A stretch of 64,000 nt of DNA from Gemmatimonadota bacterium (GCA_039587355.1 JBDHIO010000009.1:4907-68906); one strand, 5' to 3'; shown: positions 1,845 to 13,012, counted from the first letter of the stretch. The notes: generated from the letters alone by a model not told the origin. Made by a program: numbers and translations.

Positions 1845-2084
1845 GGGCCTCCTTGAGTCAGGTGGTTCGTGGCGACGAGATCGTGGCAAAGTGCGGTCGG
1901 TCCAGTACTGGCAAAAGTCCCCGGATGTGATGCGGAGAATCCTAGGTCGGCCTCCGTCAGGCTCCTCCGCCTGCTTCTAGCGCCTGTTGTCCAGGCATGT
2001 GACGCCCGGACCCGTGGCGATTGCTCGCGTTCTTCGACGGATCCGATCAAATTGGGCGCCGCGGCAGAACCCTGTCGCGACTAG

Positions 2085-2128
2085 GGGCGAATAGCTCAGC
2101 CTGGTTCAGAGCGCCTGCCTTACAAGCA
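2085..2128 (+). pseudogene. truncated tRNA-Val, 5' part only (acceptor, D-arm, anticodon arm through CAAGCA); attL-like remnant
   Basis: GGGCGAATAGCTCAGCCTGGTTCAGAGCGCCTGCCTTACAAGCA is identical to nt 1-44 of the intact tRNA-Val at 10695 and then diverges (CCTGTGAGG). About 100 bp upstream (1986-2084) is also ~80% identical to the region upstream of the intact gene (TGTCCAGGCATGTGAC...GCGATTGCTCGCGTTCTTCGA...GCGCCGCGGCAG...CCTGTCGCGA). Confidence 0.75.
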
Positions 2129-2208
2129 CCTGTGAGGGATGGCCGGTGCGGGAACGGTACCGGCCTTGCGGTGCCCTTGTGTGCCGTCGGCGCCACCGGC
2201 GAGAGCCG

Positions 2209-3291
2209 CTACAGGGCGACGTCCCGGGCGTGTGAGGTGACGTGCTTCGCGACGAATGGGGAGGTCATCGCGCGAACTAGCGCGCTGTAGTCGAGCTGAA
2301 ACGCGACCTCCACGCCGACGGAGAGGCGGTCCTGGCCGGCATCCGCGACGAGGTGGTCGCTGCTGGCCCCGAGGATCGAGATTCCGGGAGGCGGAAGGAG
2401 GCCGTCCGGATCCGTGTCCTGCCGTCCGAGGGCGAGGATCAACCGCCAGCTGTCGCCCCGATACACGACAGTCGGTTTGTCCCCGAACGCGGTCTGCGCG
2501 ATCTCGCCCCATGGTTGCGACGGTTTGCGTTTCGACTCGATCACTTCGGCGACGAGCGTGATGGCGTCGGTATGCAATCCGTCGATGGGTCGGCGATGGA
2601 GGGTCTCGCGTCCGAGCAGGATGGACTCGCCAAGACGCAGATGGTTGATTCGGTGCATGTCCGCGCCGCTGAAGGCCCACTCGATGCTGGCGGAGTTGCC
2701 CCCGGACACGAGGCCGATAACCGGGCCGAAGGTCGTGTCGATGGAGTCGGCCAGCGCGGACAGTTCGACCATGTTCGTCCTGTCCGGCGCCACGCCGCTG
2801 TGGCAGGCCAGGTTGGCGCCGATGCCCTCGAGCGCGATGTTCGGCAGGCGCAGCGTCTCGCGCACGTGGAACTCGACGTCGCCCGGAAGGATGCCTTCGC
2901 GGAGATCCCCAAGCTCGACCATCAGGACAACGCGGTGTGTCCGCCCGGCCTGCCGGGCCGCGGACGAGAGCTTCCTGATGACATCGAGCTCGGTGTTGAA
3001 GCTCACGTCGGTCTGCGCCACGACTCGGTCGGCCTGGCTGAGCATCGGAGAGCGAATGAGCATCATCGGGGAACGCACTCCCGCGCGGCGCATCGACTCG
3101 ATGTTCTCGATGCGAGAGTCGCCGAGCGAACTCACGCCCGCCTGAACCAGCGCGCCGGCAATCTCGGGTGATCCGAGCGTCGCCTTCGTAACGCCCGACA
3201 CCGAGATGCCGCGGTCGGCCAGCCGTCCCACCAGGACGGCCGCGTTGTGTCGGATCTTGCCGAGGTCGATCTCCAGTCGCGGCGTGCTCAT
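2209..3291 (-). CDS. PLP-dependent alanine racemase-like enzyme (YhfX / amino-acid racemase-like family)
   Basis: 360-aa ORF. N-terminal alanine-racemase TIM-barrel-like region (MSTPRLEIDLGKIRHNAAVL...GVTKATLGSPEIA) with the C-terminal beta domain. The stop overlaps the start of the upstream gene by 4 nt. Confidence 0.75.
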   Translation of the reverse strand: MSTPRLEIDLGKIRHNAAVLVGRLADRGISVSGVTKATLGSPEIAGALVQAGVSSLGDSRIENIESMRRAGVRSPMMLIRSPMLSQADRVVAQTDVSFNTELDVIRKLSSAARQAGRTHRVVLMVELGDLREGILPGDVEFHVRETLRLPNIALEGIGANLACHSGVAPDRTNMVELSALADSIDTTFGPVIGLVSGGNSASIEWAFSGADMHRINHLRLGESILLGRETLHRRPIDGLHTDAITLVAEVIESKRKPSQPWGEIAQTAFGDKPTVVYRGDSWRLILALGRQDTDPDGLLPPPGISILGASSDHLVADAGQDRLSVGVEVAFQLDYSALVRAMTSPFVAKHVTSHARDVAL

Positions 3292-4493
3292 CGCGCGACG
3301 GCGGGCAGCTTCTCCTTCAGCTCGGGGAAGGCCGCGAGAACCATCTCGACCAGGCGCTCGCGCGGCCAGGTCAGCGCATCCGTCACAGGGATGCCGAGCT
3401 CGTCCTCGTACATCGCGATGGCTTCGGTGACCTCCGTGTCGGTCATGTTCTCGTGGTTGATCGTGAGACCGATGACCTTCGTGTCGGCAAAGGTCTGTAT
3501 CAGGTGGATCTCGGACGCGGCCGTTGGCATGGCCAGCGCGGGGAAGTCGCCGAGGCGATTCCGTCCTGGTGCGTGCTGCAGCACCACGCCTTCCGGGCGA
3601 CTACCGCGGAGAATGAACGTCGAGGTGAGGTAGGCAGGGTGGCTCAGCGCGCCCTGTCCCTCGACGACGATCACATCGGGACCCTCGCCTTCGAACGCTT
3701 CGACGACGGTGGCTTCCATCTCACCCGAACAGAACTGCGACGGAATGGCATCGAGCGCCACTCCGTAGCGAGCACCCTGGATCAAACCGGTCTGGCCGGT
3801 TCCGACCAGCACCGCGGTCAGGCCGCACTCGCGGAGAGCCTGCGTCAGGATCGTTGCCGTAGTGCGCTTGCCGATCGCGCCGTCGGTGCCTAGCACGGCG
3901 ATGCGCGGGCAGGTGACCTCGCTGATGCGACCGCTGAACATGCGCAGATCCTTCTTGGCCCGTGGCTTTCGGACGTCGAGAATCTCCACGCAGTTCTCCA
4001 CGCTCGCCGCGGCGAACTCCGGGTCGTCGTTCAGGAACTCGTGGAGACCGTTGACGACGTTGATGCCCAGCCCCATCGCCTCGAGCACGACGCGGCGCTC
4101 GTGCGGCGACAGAAGGCCGCTCGAGGGGGCCATCCCGAAGATGAAGTAATCCGGCACACCTCCGACGTGCTCCAGTGCGCTGACCAGGTCACGGCAGATG
4201 GGCGTGTCGTTCGGTCTGCCGTCGAGTACCGCGCCGGCATCAAGACCGACCTTCTCGCTGTCGATGACCGCCAGGATCTCATACCTGTCCGAGTGACGGA
4301 CGAGCCCGTTGGCGGTCTTTCCGTCGCTCGCGCCGAAGTTGGCCTCGCAGTAGACGACGGCTGTTGCGGCCCGGGGTGGTTGCCCGTCGATGTTGCCTGG
4401 CGACGGGTGTGTCGTCAGGTCGTTTCCTGGGGGCCGTCTCGGACCACGGGACGGACGCGACGGGATGGATTGCGGATCTCGGAACACGGTCAC
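3288..4493 (-). CDS. DUF1611 family protein (Rossmann-like N-domain plus P-loop-like C-domain)
   Basis: 401-aa ORF with a GTDGAIGKRTTA P-loop-like segment and the typical DUF1611 C-terminal half (PDVIVVEGQGALSHP). Forms an operon with the racemase-like gene via a 4-nt overlap. Confidence 0.75.
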   Translation of the reverse strand: MTVFRDPQSIPSRPSRGPRRPPGNDLTTHPSPGNIDGQPPRAATAVVYCEANFGASDGKTANGLVRHSDRYEILAVIDSEKVGLDAGAVLDGRPNDTPICRDLVSALEHVGGVPDYFIFGMAPSSGLLSPHERRVVLEAMGLGINVVNGLHEFLNDDPEFAAASVENCVEILDVRKPRAKKDLRMFSGRISEVTCPRIAVLGTDGAIGKRTTATILTQALRECGLTAVLVGTGQTGLIQGARYGVALDAIPSQFCSGEMEATVVEAFEGEGPDVIVVEGQGALSHPAYLTSTFILRGSRPEGVVLQHAPGRNRLGDFPALAMPTAASEIHLIQTFADTKVIGLTINHENMTDTEVTEAIAMYEDELGIPVTDALTWPRERLVEMVLAAFPELKEKLPAVAR

Positions 4494-4694
4494 TCCTCGA
4501 GTTGGGCTCAGAGGAGGCGACGGAATCGTGCCGGCCAGAGTTGGCCGGAATTCAACGAGAGGTCCCCGCTAAGTCGGTCTTGAAGCGGAGCCGCCACGGG
4601 AAGGCACTGCTTCCCTGAGCGAAATCCACCATAGACACTACCGTCGGGGAGCCTTCAAGACCAGATCGAGGGGAAGCCCGTCGACATCCGGAGG

Positions 4695-4791
4695 GCCTGC
4701 ATTTACGAGCAGGAAGTCGGGGGTTCGAACCGAAGCTCGACGTCAGCCGACCGAAGCTCGCCGAGGGAGCGAGGCCATCCCTCTTCGCCCC
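4695..4791 (+). pseudogene. tRNA-Val 3' part (anticodon arm, variable loop, T-arm, acceptor 3' strand) interrupted by a 46-nt insertion in the T-loop; attR-like remnant
   Basis: GCCTGCATTTACGAGCAGGAAGTCGGGGGTTCGAA [46 nt containing CCGAAGCTCG x2] ATCCCTCTTCGCCCC, compared with the intact GCCTGCCTTACAAGCAGGAAGTCGGGGGTTCGAATCCCTCTTCGCCCA. The discriminator A is replaced by C. Confidence 0.7.
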
Positions 4792-4813
4792 CATTATGTT
4801 GTCCCTCAGTCAC

Positions 4814-4856
4814 GGGCGAATAGCTCAGCCTGGTTTAGAGCACCTGCCTTACAAGC
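4814..4856 (+). pseudogene. second truncated tRNA-Val 5' part (diverged copy), 22 nt downstream of the 3'-part remnant
   Basis: GGGCGAATAGCTCAGCCTGGTTTAGAGCACCTGCCTTACAAGC has 2 mismatches to the intact gene and then diverges (GGCCCCGAG). There is no conserved upstream block. Confidence 0.7.
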
Positions 4857-5237
4857 GGCCCCGAGATCCCCCGATTCCCGGCATTTCTCCGTATTTCAAC
4901 GGGAAAGTACGGATCATATCCCGTACTTCGATCGTCGTCTCCGGGGGTGATCCGTATATCGACAGCCCCACGAACAGCCCCAGGTCCGTGAATCCAGGAG
5001 GTGCGGGTCGCTCGGGCCCCACCACGTTCGAGAGCTGGGGCATGCTCACCGCGACCCAGTGCCCTGGCGTAGACAGGGGACGCCAGCCGACAGACAGGCG
5101 TCGCCGTGGGAGTGTCGAATGGCGCAGATGCACCCAACGCCGGCATCATTACGCAACGTCTTTTCGTCAATACGCGAGTCATACGACAGCCACGGTCAGC
5201 CCAAAGACATTATCCAGAGAGATATGGGAGACTGCCA

Positions 5238-5720
5238 GTGGAACAACACGATGCGTTGCTCACTCTAAGTGAGATTGCAGCAGCATTCGTTGGGTTTTCG
5301 ACGATCGTGGTTGTTTTCAGGTCGAATCGTTCGGAACTCCAACGGTTTCGTCTGCGCGGCGTGGCCGAGATCGGCATCGCCGTCCTCTTCGGGGCGTTCT
5401 TGCCGCTCATGGTAGCGGGGCTGGTTTCTTCAGACTCTCAAGTCTGGCGCATCAGCAGCGTGATCTTCGCGCCGACAGCCCTGACTGGTTGGATCGTCTG
5501 GTCCCGGAGCGTGTCCCGAGCCGGTCACCCGCCGACCTTCGGAAAGCTGCCGTTCGCACCCGATGTCGTGGCCAACGTGGTGGGACAGGTGCTGCTGTGG
5601 TGGAACGTGATGGCCCCGACCCCGGCCGCCCCTACTCGATATGTGACGGCTCTGATGTCGTTTCTCATCATCGCAGCCATGAGTTTCGTCGCGTCGGCTT
5701 TCGGCGGAGCTGAGACCTAG
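5238..5720 (+). CDS. small integral membrane protein (about 4 TM helices), function unknown
   Basis: GTG-start ORF in the frame of ORF 5106..5720. Hydrophobic segments LLTLSEIAAAFVGFSTIVVVF, IGIAVLFGAFLPLMVAGLV, VIFAPTALTGWIVW and ALMSFLIIAAMSFVASAF. Lower-GC region (~50%). Confidence 0.45.
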   Translation: MEQHDALLTLSEIAAAFVGFSTIVVVFRSNRSELQRFRLRGVAEIGIAVLFGAFLPLMVAGLVSSDSQVWRISSVIFAPTALTGWIVWSRSVSRAGHPPTFGKLPFAPDVVANVVGQVLLWWNVMAPTPAAPTRYVTALMSFLIIAAMSFVASAFGGAET

Positions 5721-5811
5721 AGCGACGGAATTGAGGGGATAATGCCGAGTAGGGTGAGTTAGGAACAAGACCCTTGGACGTCACGGGACGGTTCTCTTCT
5801 CCCTAGGCGGG

Positions 5812-6270
5812 TTGCGGGGCGATGTGTCCGAGAGACTCCTGTATTCGACCGTAGCCCTAGAGACCGTGCTTCTTCGGAACGAAACCGAGCCGATTCAAAG
5901 TGCCCTGTCCGATCGCGTGGCCTTCCTCGTCACACAGGAACTGGAGGGATGGCTAGCCGTCGCAAAGGATGTGAAACGGGCGTACGGCCTTAGAAGTCGA
6001 TTCGTTCATCACGGTGTCGACGCAGTCGACTCGGAGGTTGTTAGTCGCTTCTTGCTGCATAGTTGGCTGGCGATTTGGACCCTGATCCACAACGCACATC
6101 GATTTGAAGATGCGAATGAACTGGCCGATTCGTTGGACAGATTGAAGTTCGGTGGGGGCCGCTACTTGATCAGGTCAGTGGGTCTGGCCTCCGCCACTGC
6201 ACCTAACAAAGTCCGCGGGCGGCTCCGGGTCTCTGGCCGGACCGCAGCGATGCCCTCGAGGGGACTATGA
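5812..6270 (+). CDS. hypothetical protein with an Rx4H (HEPN-like) motif, RSRFVHHG
   Basis: 152-aa ORF with a TTG/GTG start in lower-GC DNA. The only sequence hook is R-x4-H followed by H (LRSRFVHHG) in a predicted helical protein. Its stop overlaps the next ORF (ATGA). Confidence 0.45.
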   Translation: MRGDVSERLLYSTVALETVLLRNETEPIQSALSDRVAFLVTQELEGWLAVAKDVKRAYGLRSRFVHHGVDAVDSEVVSRFLLHSWLAIWTLIHNAHRFEDANELADSLDRLKFGGGRYLIRSVGLASATAPNKVRGRLRVSGRTAAMPSRGL

Positions 6271-6806
6271 GTCTTGAAGATCTAGCGCGAATCGGCGAGT
6301 TCGCGGGCGTGATCGCCGTCCTTGTCACTCTACTCTACCTGTCCATCCAGGTACGGCAGAGCATCCGAGAGACCCGTGATCAAACAGCCTGGAGGATCAC
6401 GGAATCACTCAACCAGTTTACGGTCGCGCTCACCTCCGACGGGGAGACCGCGGAGATCTGGTGTCGCGGGAACGACAACTTCGACGCGCTCGATCGCGTC
6501 GAGCGGGAGCGGTTCGTAGTCCTGGTGGCTCAATGGGGCAATGTCTTGATCGCTTTGTACCGCACGAGGGACACCTCCTCGATCCCCGCCGAATACTGGG
6601 ACCACAACCTGGAGACGTTTGCGATCTACTACGCCACCTATCCGGGATTTCGGAAGGCGGTCGAATACGTGAACGTGCCGGACTACCTCCTTAGAGAGGT
6701 CGTCGCCAGGGCCGAGCTCGGAGCAGGCGCGCCGGGCACAAATACCTCGCCAGCAGCGATGAACGAGCGAGCCGAAGGTTCCACATCGGCGGACGAGGAG
6801 GCATAG
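6267..6806 (+). CDS. hypothetical single-pass membrane protein
   Basis: 179-aa ORF. N-terminal TM helix IGEFAGVIAVLVTLLYLSIQV followed by a soluble domain. 4-nt overlap with the upstream ORF indicates translational coupling. Confidence 0.5.
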   Translation: MSLEDLARIGEFAGVIAVLVTLLYLSIQVRQSIRETRDQTAWRITESLNQFTVALTSDGETAEIWCRGNDNFDALDRVERERFVVLVAQWGNVLIALYRTRDTSSIPAEYWDHNLETFAIYYATYPGFRKAVEYVNVPDYLLREVVARAELGAGAPGTNTSPAAMNERAEGSTSADEEA

Positions 6807-7191
6807 CCTGGGGTCGCCGCAAGGACCGTCCGTGAGAGCGAGAGGTCCGGAGATGAAGCAGACAAGCGTCGGTGGTGTGATTCAGATCTTCGCCAACGTC
6901 GGCGTGATCCTGAGCGTTTCTCGCCATTCAGATCGGCCCAAGCAAGCGTCCGAAGCCCCGCCGACACCGGACCACCCCTCAAACCACGCCACCCGAATTC
7001 CCTCTAGATCGCCGACCCCGACCCCCCAATCCGATTAGATCGACCCACTGTCCCTTTGGGGATGCAGCTCCTAGCGTGAATCGTTCAGATTAAGGGAAGG
7101 GGCGACTGCTGACATCCCCGTCCAGCAATCCATGTATTAGTTGGATGGCTCGGAACCGACCGTGGGATTGCGAGTCAAGGAGATGAAGATC

Positions 7192-8085
7192 ATGTCCACC
7201 ATTCGCTCGCCGCTACTCGTGGCCGCAGCGCTCACCCTCCTGCCTGCCGCGGTCACGGCTCAGGGCAGGGTGGAAAAGAACGTTGTCGTGGGCACGTGGT
7301 CTGGTCTGGCCCTGGTGATGGACGTCTACCATCCCGAAGATCCGAATGGCTACGGCATCGTATACATTGCCGGGAGTGGTTGGACGAGGCCTTTGTCTTA
7401 CGATGGTGCCCTTCTGACCGAACGGGGCGAGTCGCAGCGGTCGCCGCTCGTGGATGCAGGCTACACCGTCTTTTCCCTAACTCACCGAGCTCTTCCACGA
7501 TTCCATTTTCCTGCTCCACTGGAAGATGTGCAGCGGGCCGTCCGATTCATCCGATTCCACGCTGGGGAGTATGGCATTGACCCGCAGCGAATCGGGGCCA
7601 TGGGCGGTTCATCTGGGGGAAACCTGGCCCTCCAACTAGGCGTGCTAGATGGTGAAGGGGATCAAGACGGCCCTGATCCCGTCAATCGGGTGAGCGCGAA
7701 GGTCCAGGCCGTCGTCGCACAGGCAGCCCGAGCCGACCTGACTCATGCCGATGGGTCTTTCAGCTTCATGACATCTGTGTTGATGATCGGGGCTCGCCCT
7801 TCGCGGGACGTTGAGTCGCAGGTGGGCCGAAAGTGCTGGGAGGCGTCACCGGTCAACCACGCTTCGAGCGACGACCCTCCGACGCTGCTTCTCCACGGTG
7901 ACATGGATGAAGTCGTCCCATACCACCAATCGGAACTCATGCTCGCTGCGTTGCAGGAGCACGAGGTGGAGGCTCGCTTGCTCCGGATTCCTGGTGGCGG
8001 CCACGGTCCATCGTTTCCCGGGGCCACAGACCCGCCGGACCACATTCGTGCCGTGATCGATTGGTTCGAGCGTCTGAAGCGATAG
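7192..8085 (+). CDS. secreted alpha/beta-hydrolase (esterase/peptidase S9-like)
   Basis: Signal peptide MSTIRSPLLVAAALTLLPAAVTAQ. Nucleophile elbow GGSSGGN (G-x-S-x-G), a C-terminal HGDMDEVVP acid and GGGHG His motif. RBS AAGGAG 9 nt upstream of ATG 7192. Confidence 0.8.
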   Translation: MSTIRSPLLVAAALTLLPAAVTAQGRVEKNVVVGTWSGLALVMDVYHPEDPNGYGIVYIAGSGWTRPLSYDGALLTERGESQRSPLVDAGYTVFSLTHRALPRFHFPAPLEDVQRAVRFIRFHAGEYGIDPQRIGAMGGSSGGNLALQLGVLDGEGDQDGPDPVNRVSAKVQAVVAQAARADLTHADGSFSFMTSVLMIGARPSRDVESQVGRKCWEASPVNHASSDDPPTLLLHGDMDEVVPYHQSELMLAALQEHEVEARLLRIPGGGHGPSFPGATDPPDHIRAVIDWFERLKR

Positions 8086-8192
8086 GTCGGGTTCTACCTC
8101 GCCAGTGCGGACACTTCAGACTAGGCTTGGGCTTCCCACGGGCCCTAGGTGTCTACGCGGGTCTGGAGCAAGACCGCTCGCGGTCGCCCGCG

Positions 8193-8618
8193 CTACCTCA
8201 CGTATTCGAGCGAGTTTCCCGTCTGGCATTCATCCAAGACCAGCCGGTCAACCAGGACCGCCACGAGGTCCGAGCACCCGCACCCTTCGGGAACGAGAAA
8301 GAGGTTGTCCCGGGACGGTTCCCAGCCACCGGTCGTCACTCGGCTCTGCGTCGACACCTGCCCACCCTCCGTGACCCGTAGTCCTAGGGTATGCTCGAAA
8401 CTGCGGTCCGCACGAAGTACAAGCGTGCCCTGGGTCACCTCGACGAATCGCTGGCCTTCCTCAATGAAGGGGGCGGGCAGGTCACCGTCGTTGACGGACC
8501 GGAGTTGATATGTGCCAACGACGCTCGGCGGATCACCACCCGCGCCGGTGGGGTTATCACTTCCTCCACAAGCACAGATCCAAAGAAGGAGGATCGTGCC
8601 CAGTCCTCGGCTGCACAT
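8193..8618 (-). CDS. putative lipoprotein, function unknown
   Basis: Internal Met of ORF 8193..8825 gives MCSRGLGTILLLWICACGG (signal peptide plus Cys). 141 aa. Confidence 0.5.
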   Translation of the reverse strand: MCSRGLGTILLLWICACGGSDNPTGAGGDPPSVVGTYQLRSVNDGDLPAPFIEEGQRFVEVTQGTLVLRADRSFEHTLGLRVTEGGQVSTQSRVTTGGWEPSRDNLFLVPEGCGCSDLVAVLVDRLVLDECQTGNSLEYVR

Positions 8619-8922
8619 CCGCGGCTCCTTCGACGTTCGTCTGCCCCGCTTTCTCCTACTTTGTAGCGGAACATCCGTGCCGGCCTGCACGCCCGCGCCC
8701 AGCGGTCGAAGGAGCGGACCCCACCCGGGTTGGTTGGCGGAGGGGCATTCCGCCCCACTCGCTGTACCGGGGCGAAACAACCCGCCGTGGGACGGGCTGG
8801 CTTCTCGGCCTGTGTGAGAGAGCATCCCGGAGGCGTGGAGCGCAACCCCTAGCCAGTCCCCGAACGCTTCGGCGCTCCGTCACGAGTGGTTTGAAGGCCC
8901 TGAGGTCATCACCGTCAACGCT

Positions 8923-9213
8923 ATGAACCCGACATCGACGCACGTTGAGGAGGCCATCCGTTCCAGTGGTCTCCGCGTGACCTACACGCCCTGCGTTCTG
9001 ATGCTGCGGAAGCCTCCGCCCGAAGCCCTGAGCAAGATTGGAAACCTGCCGGACGCGGAACGTCAGAAGTCATTCCGACTGCTAATCTCAATCCTCGGCG
9101 TGGCTGATTCGGAACGGAGAGCCGGGTGCGGCGATAACTGCGCCCACTGGTGGAATCGCGACCTTCGTGATGAAGCGGTCGTCCGGCAGATTCTCGCGGA
9201 GGGTGCGGCCTAA
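8923..9213 (+). CDS. small hypothetical protein
   Basis: 96-aa ORF in lower-GC island DNA. No recognisable motif. Confidence 0.3.
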   Translation: MNPTSTHVEEAIRSSGLRVTYTPCVLMLRKPPPEALSKIGNLPDAERQKSFRLLISILGVADSERRAGCGDNCAHWWNRDLRDEAVVRQILAEGAA

Positions 9214-9396
9214 CAGACGCGGTGGGGGCACCTCATGTCCGGCGCGCCCTCGCCGGGCCCGTTTAGGGTTGGTTGGAAGGTGTCGTCGTCGGGGGGGGGT
9301 CGGGAGGGTCGTAAGCCAGGACTCCTGGAGCCGTGCCTGGAGGTTGGTAGCGGCCAAGGCGGGACAAGCGCACGCCCTTCGTGGGCCCGCTCATGT

Positions 9397-9640
9397 CGTC
9401 CCTCGCCAAGCCGCGATCGTTTCCGAATCGAAGTGCACGTCCAACTGTGGAAAGGCGATCGTGATGCCCGCGTCCCTGAGAGCCCACCAGATCGCTTCGT
9501 GCAGATCAGAGCTGCGATGGAGCCGATTCCATGGGTCGTCGAACCACACCGACACTTCAAAAGCGATTGCTACTGGCGCGGTAAGCGCCCAGCTCGCGCG
9601 CTTCGCTCGCGGTCCGCATCTTGGTCGCGCAGCAGAATCG
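9397..9640 (-). pseudogene. C-terminal fragment of an MscS-family mechanosensitive channel gene (remnant)
   Basis: The minus-strand translation ...AIAFEVSVWFDDPWNRLHRSSDLHEAIWWALRDAGITIAFPQLDVHFDSE* aligns with the MscS C-terminal domain ([41 protein letters not shown]). The upstream ~200 aa of MscS are absent; that DNA is occupied by a + strand ORF. Confidence 0.45.
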
Positions 9641-9739
9641 CAAGTCGGTTAGAACGCGTTCGAGGAGCTGGTCATCTCAACACCAAAGATCCCGTGGCCG
9701 CGCATCCTAGTAGAGGGAGCGGTAATCGTCGCCTCGATC

Positions 9740-10363
9740 TTGCTTGCGTTCGGCGTCGATGCGGCTTGGGACGGCCGAGCGGAAAGGCAACGTCGCGATG
9801 CCATGCTCGTGGCACTTGCCGGCGACATGGCCTTGGCGAAAGACGAGATCGATCGCGTCGCTGGCTATCACTCCATTGGACGAAGTGCCGCTGAAGACCT
9901 GCTCAGGTACGAGGATGTCCCTGCGGGGCAGGAGGCTCAGTCTGTCGTTGATTCCCTGGTCGGAGCGGTCTCGTTCGGGGCGGCCAGCTATGATGCGCCC
10001 TTGGGCGCGGTTGGAAGTCTCATAAACTCCGGCGACTTCGAACTCCTTAATGATCCGGCCTTGGCGGCCGACTTAACCGCGTTCCCCGCTTTAATCGCCA
10101 ACCTCGAGCGTGAGCAGAGTTTCCTCGCACCGGCGATCGCGGACTTGGCCGTCTACCTTGGGTCCGAGGGAGTCGATATGAGCCACCTGCAGACCGAGGT
10201 GCCTTGGCAGACCCGCCCCACGGAGGCATTCGCGCTCCTTGCGTCCCCACGCTTCAGGGGCATCATCGGCGAATTCTATATCTCGTACCGTAACACCTTG
10301 GGCGCGCTCGCCTCGATCCGCGAAGCGCTCGCCCGGATGGAGTCACGCCTGCCTGTCTCATGA
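9740..10363 (+). CDS. hypothetical protein with an N-terminal hydrophobic segment
   Basis: 207-aa ORF (TTG start in the track). The frame is open upstream to ~9653 and encodes a TM-like stretch (VIVASILLAFGV), so the true start is uncertain. No family recognised. Confidence 0.45.
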   Translation: MLAFGVDAAWDGRAERQRRDAMLVALAGDMALAKDEIDRVAGYHSIGRSAAEDLLRYEDVPAGQEAQSVVDSLVGAVSFGAASYDAPLGAVGSLINSGDFELLNDPALAADLTAFPALIANLEREQSFLAPAIADLAVYLGSEGVDMSHLQTEVPWQTRPTEAFALLASPRFRGIIGEFYISYRNTLGALASIREALARMESRLPVS

Positions 10364-10694
10364 GCCGCGGAAAGCTTCGGGCTATGCGTTCTAACAAGCG
10401 ATTGCTGCTGACGGCCCAGCTGTAGTCTCCCGCGCTTCGCGCGCCCCGCCTACGATGTCCGCAGCAGAGTCGCAGAACCTTTAGGCTGCCGGTGAGGGGT
10501 TTGGTTCGACATCACAACCGACGACATCCGCTAAACAGATCGAGGTTCTCTACGCCGCTGGAGTGGACCCCACGGATGCCTGTCGAGTGGCGCCAGCTGT
10601 CCAGGCATGTGACACGAGGACACTGAGCGATTGCTCGCGTTCTTCGATCGGTACAATCAGATTGTGCGCCGCGGCAGGATCCTGTCGCGAACTC

Positions 10695-10770
10695 GGGCGA
10701 ATAGCTCAGCCTGGTTCAGAGCGCCTGCCTTACAAGCAGGAAGTCGGGGGTTCGAATCCCTCTTCGCCCA
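10695..10770 (+). tRNA. tRNA-Val (anticodon UAC)
   Basis: Cloverleaf read directly: acceptor GGGCGAA/TTCGCCC, D-arm GCTCAGCCTGGTTCAGAGC, anticodon arm CCTGC-CTTACAA-GCAGG (anticodon TAC), T-arm GGGGGTTCGAATCCCTC, discriminator A. CCA is not encoded. Confidence 0.9.
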
Positions 10771-10796
10771 TATGATGCGGGTGTCGATCGGGCACC

Positions 10797-10846
10797 GAAG
10801 AGGGATCGGCGGACGCGCAGCGTCGTAGCCCATCCCTCTTCGCCCA
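10797..10846 (+). repeat. hairpin repeat copy 1 ending in the tRNA-Val 3' end (GAAGAGGGAT..loop..ATCCCTCTTCGCCCA)
   Basis: 10-bp perfect inverted repeat GAAGAGGGAT/ATCCCTCTTC around a ~25-nt loop. The last 15 nt are identical to the tRNA-Val 3' terminus. Confidence 0.7.
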
Positions 10847-10888
10847 TGCGTCATCCCCCCATGTGTCATTCCCTCGATCCGCCTGCTC

Positions 10889-10937
10889 GAAGGGGATCGG
10901 CGGACGCAGAGCGTCGCAGCCCATCCCTCTTCGCCCA
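10889..10937 (+). repeat. hairpin repeat copy 2 (GAAGGGGAT...CCATCCCTCTTCGCCCA)
   Basis: About 90% identical to copy 1, 43 bp downstream of it. Confidence 0.7.
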
Positions 10938-11295
10938 AATGAGCCTGGCTCCGCAGATCCTCCGGCAGTTGGGGACAATGTGCCGCGCGAAAGAGCCCCT
11001 TCGTCGGGATACTTCGGCCCACTCACCGGAGCAGGTCCTCGAGCAGGAACGCTGGGATCGCCAGGGGGCGTAGGGGGACCCGGGGGGTTCGCGCCAGATG
11101 ATGCCGTGGGCATGATACCCGCCTCCTTCCAGTCGGTACTTCTCCTGGGGAAGCTGCATGTCTATCAAGGGCGCCTCCGTTCTCCACGATTCGCAGAGCC
11201 CTGGTTCCGGCTTTTCCACGAGGCGGACGGGTGATGGGGCCGAGAGACCGGTTCCCAGCATCGGAAGAGGTGAATCGGACTGGAAGGAGGCTCGG

Positions 11296-11817
11296 ATGTT
11301 GAAGAAAGCCACGCTGATCATCGCGGCCTTACTGCTCACCGCGGGCGCTCTGGATGCTCAGGAGCACCACCGAAGAGGCCTCTGGGGAGGTGTCGGTTTT
11401 GGATGGGCATCCCTCAACTGCTTCGACTGTGGCGCGGATGGAAGCGAGAGTGGCTGGGGAGGAGCCGGTCGTCTCGGAGGCACGGTCTCACCCAGCTTCC
11501 GGCTGGCCGCCGGTACGAACACCTGGAACGAGAGTGAAGGTTCTGTCACGGTCCAGGCAGGGTCGCTGGAGCTACAGGGCTTCTGGTTTCCGGGCGCTGG
11601 CGACTTCTTCGCGCTCGGAGGCGCAGGTCTGGGGTACGCGGCTGTCGATTGGGACATCGAAGACACGTACTTCGCCTTCACCGCCGGAGCGGGATACACG
11701 ATCAATCTGGGCGAAAGCAAGGCGTGGGCGCTCGTGCCCGAGGTTTCGCTCACGACGTTCGCGAACGATGCTCTGACGTACTACGTGAACCTGAACTTCA
11801 GCTTCTGGTGGAACTGA
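11296..11817 (+). CDS. small outer-membrane beta-barrel protein (OmpW/OMP_b-brl-like)
   Basis: Signal peptide MLKKATLIIAALLLTAGALDAQ. Gly/aromatic-rich alternating strands. C-terminal ...NLNFSFWWN. RBS AAGGAGG 5 nt upstream. Confidence 0.7.
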   Translation: MLKKATLIIAALLLTAGALDAQEHHRRGLWGGVGFGWASLNCFDCGADGSESGWGGAGRLGGTVSPSFRLAAGTNTWNESEGSVTVQAGSLELQGFWFPGAGDFFALGGAGLGYAAVDWDIEDTYFAFTAGAGYTINLGESKAWALVPEVSLTTFANDALTYYVNLNFSFWWN

Positions 11818-11894
11818 CCTTCTGCTGAAGCAGGAGTATCAAGGACAACTTCCGCCCCGCGGTCCAGCGGGGCGGCCCCCCGTCTTTCGGCCAC

Positions 11895-11928
11895 TCGGAA
11901 CGTCGTAGCCCATCGCTCCTCGCCCATT
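11895..11928 (+). repeat. degenerate third copy of the tRNA-3'-end repeat
   Basis: CGGAACGTCGTAGCCCATCGCTCCTCGCCCAT versus CGCAGCGTCGTAGCCCATCCCTCTTCGCCCAT (~80% identical). Lies just downstream of the OMP gene. Confidence 0.5.
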
Positions 11929-12010: not shown

Positions 12011-13012
12011 GTGATTGAATGGATCAAGACTCGTTCGAAGCGTGACCTCGTATTGTCTCTCGTAATCGCAGGGGTCTTCTTCGTGTTCGCGGGCGCCTTC
12101 GTCCGCGGCGTGTTCAGCGAGCGGCACTACAGCTCCGAGTACAGCTCCGGACACAACTACGAGTACGAGTACTCGGGCGGCATGCTCTTCGATGAGTCGT
12201 TCGCCGTAGCTCCCGGGGCACTGCTCGTCGTGCGGGTTTCCGACCTCGACGTGGTCGTTTCCACCACGTCCGGCAGAGAGGCCACCGTCCGCCTCGACCT
12301 CGATGAGGGCGAGGGCGTATCAGGCAATGCCCTCGAGGCCATGGGCTTCCGGGTAGAGCGCACGAGCGAGGGCCTCGAGATCACGACGGAGGGCAACGAT
12401 CGCGGGCGGCACGACGACTTCGACGGGACGCTCATGGTTACCGTGCCGACGCAGTTCGATGTACAGGTGCGCACGGGTGACGGTGACGTGGCTGTCGAGT
12501 CGGTCGAGGGCTCCGTGATGCTCAACACGGGCGACGGCGACATCGCGCTCGGTGGCGCGCTCGGGCCCGAAGTGATGATCCAGACGGGTGACGGCGATGT
12601 GGCGGTCGGAGGCGTGGGAAGCGCGGACATCAAGATCCAGACGGGTGACGGTGACGTGGCGCTTGGCCGGCTCGAGGCCGAGCAGGTGCAGGTCCGCACC
12701 GGCGACGGCGACATCGTGATCGCCGAGATGTCCGGTGCGCTCAAGGCGTCGACCGGCGACGGCGACGTGATGCTGCATGTCGGCAGCTTCCAGGGCGTCG
12801 AGATCTCTACGGGCGACGGTGACGTCACCCTGTACGCTCCGTCGTCTCTCGCGGCCGACGTATCGATCATCGGCGGCGAGCTCGTCCTCGGTGAGGCGTT
12901 CGCCCTTCCGGCGACGATCGAGGACCGGCGGGTCGAAGGTCAGCTGAACGGCGGCGGACCGAACCTCCGCATTCGGGTGGGCGACGGAACGATCCGGCTG
13001 ATCGAGCGCTAG
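12011..13012 (+). CDS. DUF4097-type beta-strand repeat protein (putative adhesin / Toastrack family) with N-terminal TM anchor
   Basis: N-terminal TM helix LVLSLVIAGVFFVFAGAFV followed by about 8 tandem ~17-aa repeats carrying TGDGDV/I (coding 12470-12850). GTG start with RBS GGAGG upstream. Confidence 0.7.
   Translation: MIEWIKTRSKRDLVLSLVIAGVFFVFAGAFVRGVFSERHYSSEYSSGHNYEYEYSGGMLFDESFAVAPGALLVVRVSDLDVVVSTTSGREATVRLDLDEGEGVSGNALEAMGFRVERTSEGLEITTEGNDRGRHDDFDGTLMVTVPTQFDVQVRTGDGDVAVESVEGSVMLNTGDGDIALGGALGPEVMIQTGDGDVAVGGVGSADIKIQTGDGDVALGRLEAEQVQVRTGDGDIVIAEMSGALKASTGDGDVMLHVGSFQGVEISTGDGDVTLYAPSSLAADVSIIGGELVLGEAFALPATIEDRRVEGQLNGGGPNLRIRVGDGTIRLIER

Follow-up and report, generated by a model that had tools for sequence, protein, structure and literature searches.

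A probable integrase-less island in an apparent tandem array at the tRNA-Val gene of a Gemmatimonadota bacterium

We analysed a stretch of 64,000 nucleotides (nt) from an uncultured Gemmatimonadota bacterium (GCA_039587355.1, JBDHIO010000009.1:4907-68906; hereafter the window), in which ARAGORN and Rfam find a single tRNA gene, an intact tRNA-Val(TAC). An earlier inspection of the DNA (the sequence-only reading) had proposed that an accessory island without an integrase occupies 4857-10694, between a remnant of this gene and the gene itself. We refer to this island as Y and take it to extend over 4857-10738. A pattern search of the window found the first 43 nt of tRNA-Val at 2085-2127, 4814-4856 and 10695-10737, with a chance expectation of 0. 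The remnant (copy B) and the intact gene do flank the segment, and the left edge proposed for it is exact, since the junction falls directly after the tRNA 5' fragment. All 5' halves share one end point, ...CTTACAAGC(A), also written ...CCTGCCTTACAAGC(A), which lies in the 3' strand of the anticodon stem, two bases in. Past this point copy A continues into CCTGTGAGGG... and copy B into GGCCCCGAGATCC..., which are unrelated DNA; one nucleotide is the site of both of these independent junctions. A group I/II intron or insertion sequence (IS) element in tRNA-Val was considered and rejected, as such domains are absent and the junction falls in a stem.

A 149-nt direct repeat (1980-2128 versus 10590-10738; 85% identity, 87.5% by BLAST) is made up of about 105 nt of upstream sequence, termed U and U' (~80-85% identical to each other), followed by the tRNA-Val 5' half. 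The right end of the segment does provide the working gene with its upstream region and its 5' half, in agreement with the sequence-only reading. The tRNA-Val gene would be island-derived in its 5' part, to ~10738, and native in its 3' part and downstream, where the flank is syntenic with three related loci (L022, L019 and L020). By eye, U' contains a candidate promoter, TTGCTC-N15-TACAAT, which was not called by a promoter scan whose spacer was limited to 16-18 nt; promoter and terminator scans around U, U' and the left arm of Y returned no sites. Features of the locus are collected in Table 1.

Table 1. Features at and around the tRNA-Val locus, in window coordinates (aa, amino acids; ORF, open reading frame)
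Feature	Position	Strand	Basis or remark
U, upstream block before copy A	1980-2084	+	Part of 149-nt repeat; read as right (P-type) arm of element Z
tRNA-Val 5' half, copy A	2085-2128	+	0 mismatches to intact gene up to the anticodon-stem junction
Segment X	2129-4690	-	Orr-like PLP racemase and DUF1611/DgcN-like protein; Pfam
Orr-like PLP racemase	2209-3291	-	Pfam; NCBIfam below cut-off
DUF1611/DgcN-like protein	3288-4493	-	Pfam; NCBIfam below cut-off
Block M	4691-4795	+	tRNA-Val anticodon stem-loop and 3' half with 47-nt T-loop insert; repeats, BLAST of tRNAs from metagenome-assembled genomes to 4691-4729
tRNA-Val 5' half, copy B	4814-4856	+	2 mismatches; displaced fragment, left end (attL) of island Y
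Left arm of Y, ~127 nt	4857-4983	+	Shared with left end of Z; partly kept in L021
Membrane-protein ORF, 160 aa (maximal 204 aa)	5238-5720	+	Gene calls; no Pfam or PADLOC match
ORF matching C-terminal ~120-aa helical domain of ~450-aa family	5785-6270	+	Representative search, tblastn
179-aa protein, long N-terminal hydrophobic helix	6267-6806	+	Homologue is first integron cassette in L031
Esterase, BD-FAE / alpha-beta hydrolase	7141-8085	+	Pfam PF20434, E 1e-38
DUF5958 ORF, truncated	8923-9213	+	Pfam; model positions 46-125 of 125
Weak attC-like candidate after DUF5958	9205-9283		R1 model 7.7 bits, E 1.2, not significant
G9 run	9291-9299		Sequence
attC-like element 1	9551-9669	+	R' GTTAGAA, R'' degenerate; R1 covariance model 129 bits
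207-aa ORF, cassette	9740-10363	+	Bracketed by attC-like elements
attC-like element 2	10386-10501	+	R'' TTCTAAC, R' degenerate (TTTAGGC); R1 model 106 bits
U', island-borne upstream region of working tRNA-Val	10590-10694	+	Partner of U in 149-nt repeat
Intact tRNA-Val(TAC)	10695-10770	+	ARAGORN; Rfam 73 bits
45-nt unit 1	10802-10846	+	Ends in tRNA 3' end (CCCATCCCTCTTCGCCCA)
45-nt unit 2	10893-10937	+	Ends in tRNA 3' end (CCCATCCCTCTTCGCCCA)
OMP-like ORF	11158-11817		Inside ~1-kb downstream islet; GC3 0.72
45-nt unit 3, more diverged	11882-11926	+	tRNA 3' end; closes ~1-kb islet

In our view Y is probably a degenerate, non-autonomous and integrase-less island whose cargo consists mostly of gene remnants. 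From left to right it comprises copy B, the arm, the cargo, U' and a 5' half joined to the native 3' half of the gene. The left arm carries four CCGTA motifs in two small palindromes (4 versus 0.17 expected, a post hoc count), and these motifs together with its conservation point to a putative binding arm for a recombinase or accessory protein. Scans of IMG/VR with the left arm and with the tRNA-Val 5' half gave no match, and a permissive Rfam search of 4600-5100 yielded a sub-threshold tRNA match (17.5 bits) and one spurious small RNA.

A 14,564-nt contig (L023/L024), recorded from GCA_039586785.1 and from JGI 3300041074, differs from the window by 4 single-nucleotide polymorphisms (SNPs) in 10.4 kb and extends 4.2 kb further to the left. 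There, at L024 1-184 (about -4170 to -3990 in window coordinates), an exact tRNA-Val 5' half followed by the ~127-nt arm opens a second element, Z. The arms of Y and Z (window 4857-4983 versus L024 52-178) align column for column with scattered mismatches, after which the similarity stops abruptly. Z is laid out as 5' half, arm, cargo, U and 5' half A; its cargo (L024 338-6021) encodes a tannase, a Porin_4 protein, a bacterial pentameric ligand-gated ion channel (Neur_chan_LBD) and a 524-aa protein. Y and Z have both ends in common and unrelated cargo. The sequence-only reading had described the right end of the island as ~80% identical to a chromosomal copy at 1986-2084. The similarity holds (85% over the whole 149-nt repeat). 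Because the left end of Z, with its 5' half and arm, lies in L024, the 1986-2084 copy is better read as the right arm of Z, and is more likely the end of that element than native chromosome. Y would then be one unit of a tandem array that spans roughly -4170 to 11926 and has scars to either side of tRNA-Val. Exact-protein look-ups returned the 2.8-kb and 14.6-kb contigs alone, with no record for the 524-aa and 401-aa proteins, and a metagenome scan with a 21-mer common to U and U' gave chance matches only, with no tRNA nearby and no extended similarity.

The island had been said to drop sharply to 50-58% GC from flanks at ~68%. Its GC content is indeed atypically low (61.7% for 4857-10694 versus 66.8% for the whole window), and the 5.8-kb segment is among the lowest 0.4% of equal-sized windows. 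However, both its mean and its lowest 500-nt window (58.2%) lie above the range given, the drop is a modest step of 4-6 points, and the flanks are uneven, with 61% at 1-2000 and low GC persisting to ~12000. GC at third codon positions (GC3) is 0.64-0.76 in the island ORFs versus 0.82-0.86 in genes at 2.1-4.7 kb and from 12 kb on. Tetranucleotide distance is elevated over 4-12 kb and again over 1-2 kb. The composition of the island is atypical and foreign-looking.

The claim that no integrase is present was borne out. A six-frame Pfam scan of 4500-11200, with the threshold for Phage_integrase set at E<=0.1, matched the esterase and DUF5958 and nothing else: no integrase, no phage structural or replication domain and no transfer or conjugation domain. 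A tblastn search with an IntI query found no recombinase in the 64-kb window, and the gene calls of Z include no integrase.

Judged from protein names, the source organism belongs to Gemmatimonadota. We compared the locus with 11 loci in metagenome-assembled genomes (MAGs), all Gemmatimonadota and all different species, which were collected by a genome scan with the tRNA-Val 5' half. Synteny is confined to the downstream side: it runs from the DUF4097 gene onward in L022 (70-74% DNA identity) and is partial in L019 and L020. All 11 loci differ on the upstream side, a U-like sequence upstream of tRNA-Val is found in 0/11, and 0/11 share the segment 4857-10694. The lack of the segment in these loci and its atypical composition are in keeping with the description of Y as an accessory island at the tRNA-Val locus. 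Upstream DNA in L022 is ordinary chromosome (72-78% GC, with an RluD-like pseudouridine synthase and a Peptidase_MA peptidase). In L021, a decayed tRNA-Val 5' fragment is followed by a partly conserved arm, a 4.7-kb segment and the intact tRNA; the segment encodes an ECF sigma factor, a lipoprotein and a kinase-TPR protein whose kinase motifs were recognised by eye. Among the L021 ORFs of at least 90 aa, two of which were scanned against Pfam, none was noted that resembles an integrase. A 539-aa gene tried as a synteny anchor had to be discarded, as it led to four relatives with no linked tRNA.

Six of the 11 MAG loci (L013, L015, L016, L018, L019 and L021) have a contig end at tRNA-Val or within ~70 nt of it, and in one MAG the contigs L015 and L019 overlap exactly at tRNA-Val. 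These contig ends suggest that the tRNA-Val site is repeated or strain-variable in several lineages.

Matches to the tRNA 3' end number five (0.09 expected). Downstream of tRNA-Val, three 45-nt units close with this 3' end and look like scars of ordinary 3'-side integrations. The distance from tRNA-Val to the DUF4097 gene is ~1.2 kb in the window versus ~0.6 kb in L022. Each is preceded by the same ~28 nt (…CGTCGTAGCCC), two units and an inverted 3'-end copy make up a hairpin (CGAAGAGGGAT…ATCCCTCTTCG), and the outermost unit is the most diverged. Further on, at 12461-12833, the DUF4097 ('toastrack') gene holds six copies of a 37-nt repeat of the GTGAC GGTGAC type, mostly 57 nt apart, which encodes TGDGD repeats.

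The cargo of Y is a decaying mosaic of gene fragments and orphans, an esterase and a pair of attC-like elements around one cassette. The protein encoded at 5785-6270 matched 901 clusters in a search of representative sequences, mostly at residues ~340-450 of proteins of ~450 aa that form a widespread family with no Pfam model. In tblastn, residues 327-448 of this family alone align, so the ORF is either a fragment or a stand-alone C-terminal domain. The domain has the motif Y-x-L-R-S-x-F-V-H-H-G with invariant E, Y, R, S and H positions; among 56 homologues R57 and H63 are invariant and H62 nearly so. Its AlphaFold2 (AF2) model has five helices and a mean confidence score (pLDDT) of 86. No Pfam or PADLOC match and no significant Foldseek match to a PDB fold were obtained. 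HEPN proteins are recognised by a helical bundle with a conserved Rx4-6H motif; since Foldseek gave nothing, a HEPN-like label for this domain would depend on the R...H motif. The 179-aa protein has an all-helical AF2 model (pLDDT 79), no fold match and about 11 homologues. Structure prediction, which the sequence-only reading had recommended for the island ORFs, thus gave a confident model for 5785-6270 and a significant fold match for neither protein. On six contigs from six JGI metagenome samples (L025-L030), a 153-aa homologue of the 179-aa protein is paired with an unrelated 163-aa ORF (e.g. L025 276-1282), with a two-component system on one side and housekeeping genes (FHA-domain protein, truD, ispF, ispD, enolase) on the other; no tRNA or attC-like site was detected near this pair.

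Two further calls, the G9 homopolymer and the secreted esterase, were confirmed, the latter by its BD-FAE match and an N-terminus that resembles a signal peptide by eye; its NCBIfam matches all fall far under cut-off. The MscS gene fragment did not survive: 9391-9560 (minus strand) has no Pfam match at E 10, no PDB sequence match and no tblastn match to a neighbouring MscS, and the call is a by-eye resemblance without statistical support. With cargo that is mostly fragments and orphans (a piece of the ~450-aa family, a truncated DUF5958 ORF, a degenerate attC-like pair), Y also gives no strong lead to a new function and hardly deserves its billing as the best place in the window to look for one.

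The two attC-like elements are ~100 nt long, lie on one strand 717 nt apart and enclose a promoter-less ORF of 207 aa, with no intI nearby; the frame of the ORF extends upstream of its TTG without a canonical start codon. A metagenome contig (L031) carries a 350-aa recombinase that scores as an integron integrase (TIGR02249, 306.3 bits versus a curated cut-off of 265) and, directly after it as first cassette, the homologue of the 179-aa ORF. An element of ~100 nt that follows a cassette on this contig (2954-3054) ends in TCTAAC...GTTAGA, shows the expected end-to-end hairpin on DNA folding, and matches window 9561-9661 at 87% and 10386-10484 at 73% identity. In this part of L031 (1163-3262) the integrase is on the same strand as the cassettes, and GTTAGAAC is found both at the post-integrase junction and where the next cassette starts. 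From the three copies a covariance model (R1) was built; it found no others in the whole window with default filters or in its first 13 kb with filters off. A strict scan for R''/R' boxes returned no attC and missed the homologous copies as well, hence the R boxes of both window copies must be degenerate, one box in each; apart from that box, the terminal inverted repeats of both fit TCTAAC...GTTAGA. Folding energies of the attC-like elements are no better than those of shuffled sequence. We read the pair and its ORF as a small, decaying cluster, probably carried as cargo, that resembles a CALIN, a group of clustered attC sites without an integron integrase. The 207-aa cassette accounts for all 4 SNPs between the window and the independent assembly (9724, 9766, 10182 and 10219); read in its frame, three are synonymous, one of these upstream of the first canonical start codon.

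Repeats, junctions, shared ends, composition, the missing integrase and the downstream-only synteny are the observed features of the locus. The account we favour is arrival of Y by site-specific recombination of the tyrosine-integrase type that crossed over within the tRNA-Val(TAC) anticodon stem-loop. The attachment site of the element would have carried U', the tRNA 5' half and the ~127-nt arm. Since such a site brings the gene's 5' side along, integration would push the resident 5' half (4814-4856) to the left end of the island, and the working gene would be a composite of the island's U' and 5' half with the native 3' half. Such a gene is open to further integration, and so the newest unit under the usual model is the one that adjoins the 3' half, which would make it Y. 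Y, Z and apparently the L021 island lack an integrase; the gene may have been lost repeatedly, or the elements may depend on an integrase encoded elsewhere, as in a cis-mobilizable element (CIME). U, 5' half and arm together measure ~276 nt, near the ~250-bp attP described for tyrosine integrases (PMC4383910). The recombinase, the order of events and mobility at the present day are matters that we infer from this arrangement.

Several points weigh against this account. L021 has the arm and lacks U. Neither an integrase nor a pseudogene of one was found in Y (Pfam), in the gene calls of Z or in the window (tblastn, IntI), and the arms are taken as recombinase-binding sites solely from their conservation and motifs. 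We also infer acquisition rather than observe it, because no genome of the same species turned up with the site empty. Finally, the account does not fit neatly with segment X, which lies between copy A and block M and is core-like in composition (GC3 0.82-0.86, typical tetranucleotide distance), or with block M itself, a misplaced 3' fragment.

Block M ends 17 nt before copy B, has an 8-nt anticodon loop and, as a 3' fragment upstream of tRNA-Val, runs contrary to the configuration rule of the Islander database of tRNA-gene islands. A reading of 4691-4857 as a permuted tRNA gene, in the order 3' half, 17 nt and 5' half, was rejected in view of the 47-nt T-loop insert, the 8-nt anticodon loop and the lack of an ARAGORN call; the order of M and 5' half is probably left over from a tandem gene or from the arm of an element. 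Two histories both fit. There may have been three successive integrations, Z, then X, then Y, with M and the 17 nt as the upstream arm of X. Alternatively, two ancestral tRNA-Val genes separated by 17 nt may have received Z in the first and Y in the second, and last X in the anticodon loop of the first, where it would be flanked by CCTGCCTTACAAGC and CCTGCATTTACGAGC; such a tandem pair is seen in 0/11 related MAG loci. The two genes of X overlap and both score far under the NCBIfam equivalog cut-offs (ornithine-racemase-like, DgcN-like); the pair suggests D-amino-acid metabolism.

The same structures could have arisen with no mobile element, if a block of upstream sequence and 5' half was duplicated locally, by segmental duplication or slippage, and its copies diverged with unrelated DNA between them. 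The direct repeats, with U and U' merely ~80% identical, and the lack of an integrase suit this explanation, yet we judge it very unlikely: it would have to place two independent junctions at the same anticodon-stem nucleotide and the ~127-nt arm beside that junction in Y, in Z and in another MAG, it does not predict intervening DNA of foreign-looking composition, and it leaves the separate 3'-end scars downstream unexplained. Nor do we give much credence to a chromosomal integron cassette array of the CALIN type abutting the tRNA, with U and U' as decayed attC sites and a locus shaped by an integron integrase instead of one that targets tRNA genes. The attC-like pair around the 207-aa ORF and the position of the 179-aa homologue beside the true IntI of L031 speak for it, as does a colinear 47-nt alignment of U with attC-like element 1, which scores above all 300 mononucleotide shuffles. 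That score, though, is one of 16 comparisons against a weak null, and the R1 model misses U, U' and the arm even with filters off. Moreover, the attC-like sites are confined to the last ~1 kb of Y, and tRNA halves that recur with a fixed junction are the hallmark of integration into a tRNA gene (tDNA), not of attC x attI recombination; this puts an integron origin at a very low probability.

Least probable of all is an assembly artefact in which metagenome contigs were mis-joined through the 43-149-nt repeats. It would account for the contig ends near tRNA-Val in six MAG loci and for the 14,564-nt contig, which begins ~30 nt before a 5' half, and the U'-tRNA junction is present in the window contig alone. 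Against this, junctions A and B recur in JGI 3300041075 (L001) and in L023/L024, with at most 4 SNPs in 10.4 kb, the 43-nt repeat is below typical read length, and U and U' can be told apart by sequence; mis-joining is accordingly hard to credit.

Site-specific integration at tRNA-Val can also be extended to a bolder proposal, which we regard as unlikely: Y, Z and the L021 island may belong to a still-mobile, integrase-less Gemmatimonadota family with a split attachment site (U, 5' half and arm) that is moved in trans by an unlinked integrase, settles in tandem upstream of tRNA-Val and each time replaces the promoter and 5' half of the gene. If the elements are mobilised in trans, the arm and U would define a usable attachment site, and mobile DNA would supply the promoter of a tRNA gene. 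If the family is indeed still mobile, expression of an essential tRNA gene would be set by mobile DNA.

Islands of related design are known but rare. Islander requires an intact tDNA and a co-oriented cognate end fragment on one replicon (upstream if it is a 5' fragment), a tyrosine integrase gene that lies inside the island or overlaps it, and a length of 2-200 kb; 159 of its 3919 islands have a 5' tDNA fragment, and it lists 125 tandem arrays (PMC4383910). Like these 5'-fragment islands, Y lies between an intact tRNA gene and a co-oriented upstream 5' fragment, with a crossover placed in the anticodon stem-loop, a gene restored by island DNA and a tandem array. Its fragment, configuration and length (~5.8 kb) agree with the Islander rules and its lack of an integrase does not. 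Two differences stand out: there is no integrase gene in Y or Z, and because of this the Islander integrase filter would reject both; and the part restored by Y includes an additional ~105 nt of upstream, presumably promoter, sequence. CIMEs have lost the genes for integration and transfer and keep attL and attR, and are best documented in Streptococcus (ICEberg 2.0; PMC6323972). Y and Z resemble them in lacking such genes, in their conserved att-like ends and in tandem accretion with sister elements; unlike CIMEs, they have no cognate integrative and conjugative element (ICE) or integrase in the available DNA, and their att sites are known from sequence alone. A CALIN is defined by two or more attC sites that cluster on a single strand with no integron integrase nearby (PMC4889954). 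The attC-like pair is similar in its two ~100-nt elements on one strand around an ORF, with no intI nearby, and differs in that each copy has one degenerate R box and the cluster is cargo inside a tRNA island. 5'-fragment islands can thus accumulate in tandem without an integrase, and finders that demand one, such as Islander with its filter, would miss them. Overall, the locus is a worked example of tRNA-Val as a two-sided integration hotspot in the little-studied Gemmatimonadota, and Y belongs to a known kind, the 5'-fragment tDNA island in a tandem array, encountered here in a poorly sampled phylum, rather than to a new system.

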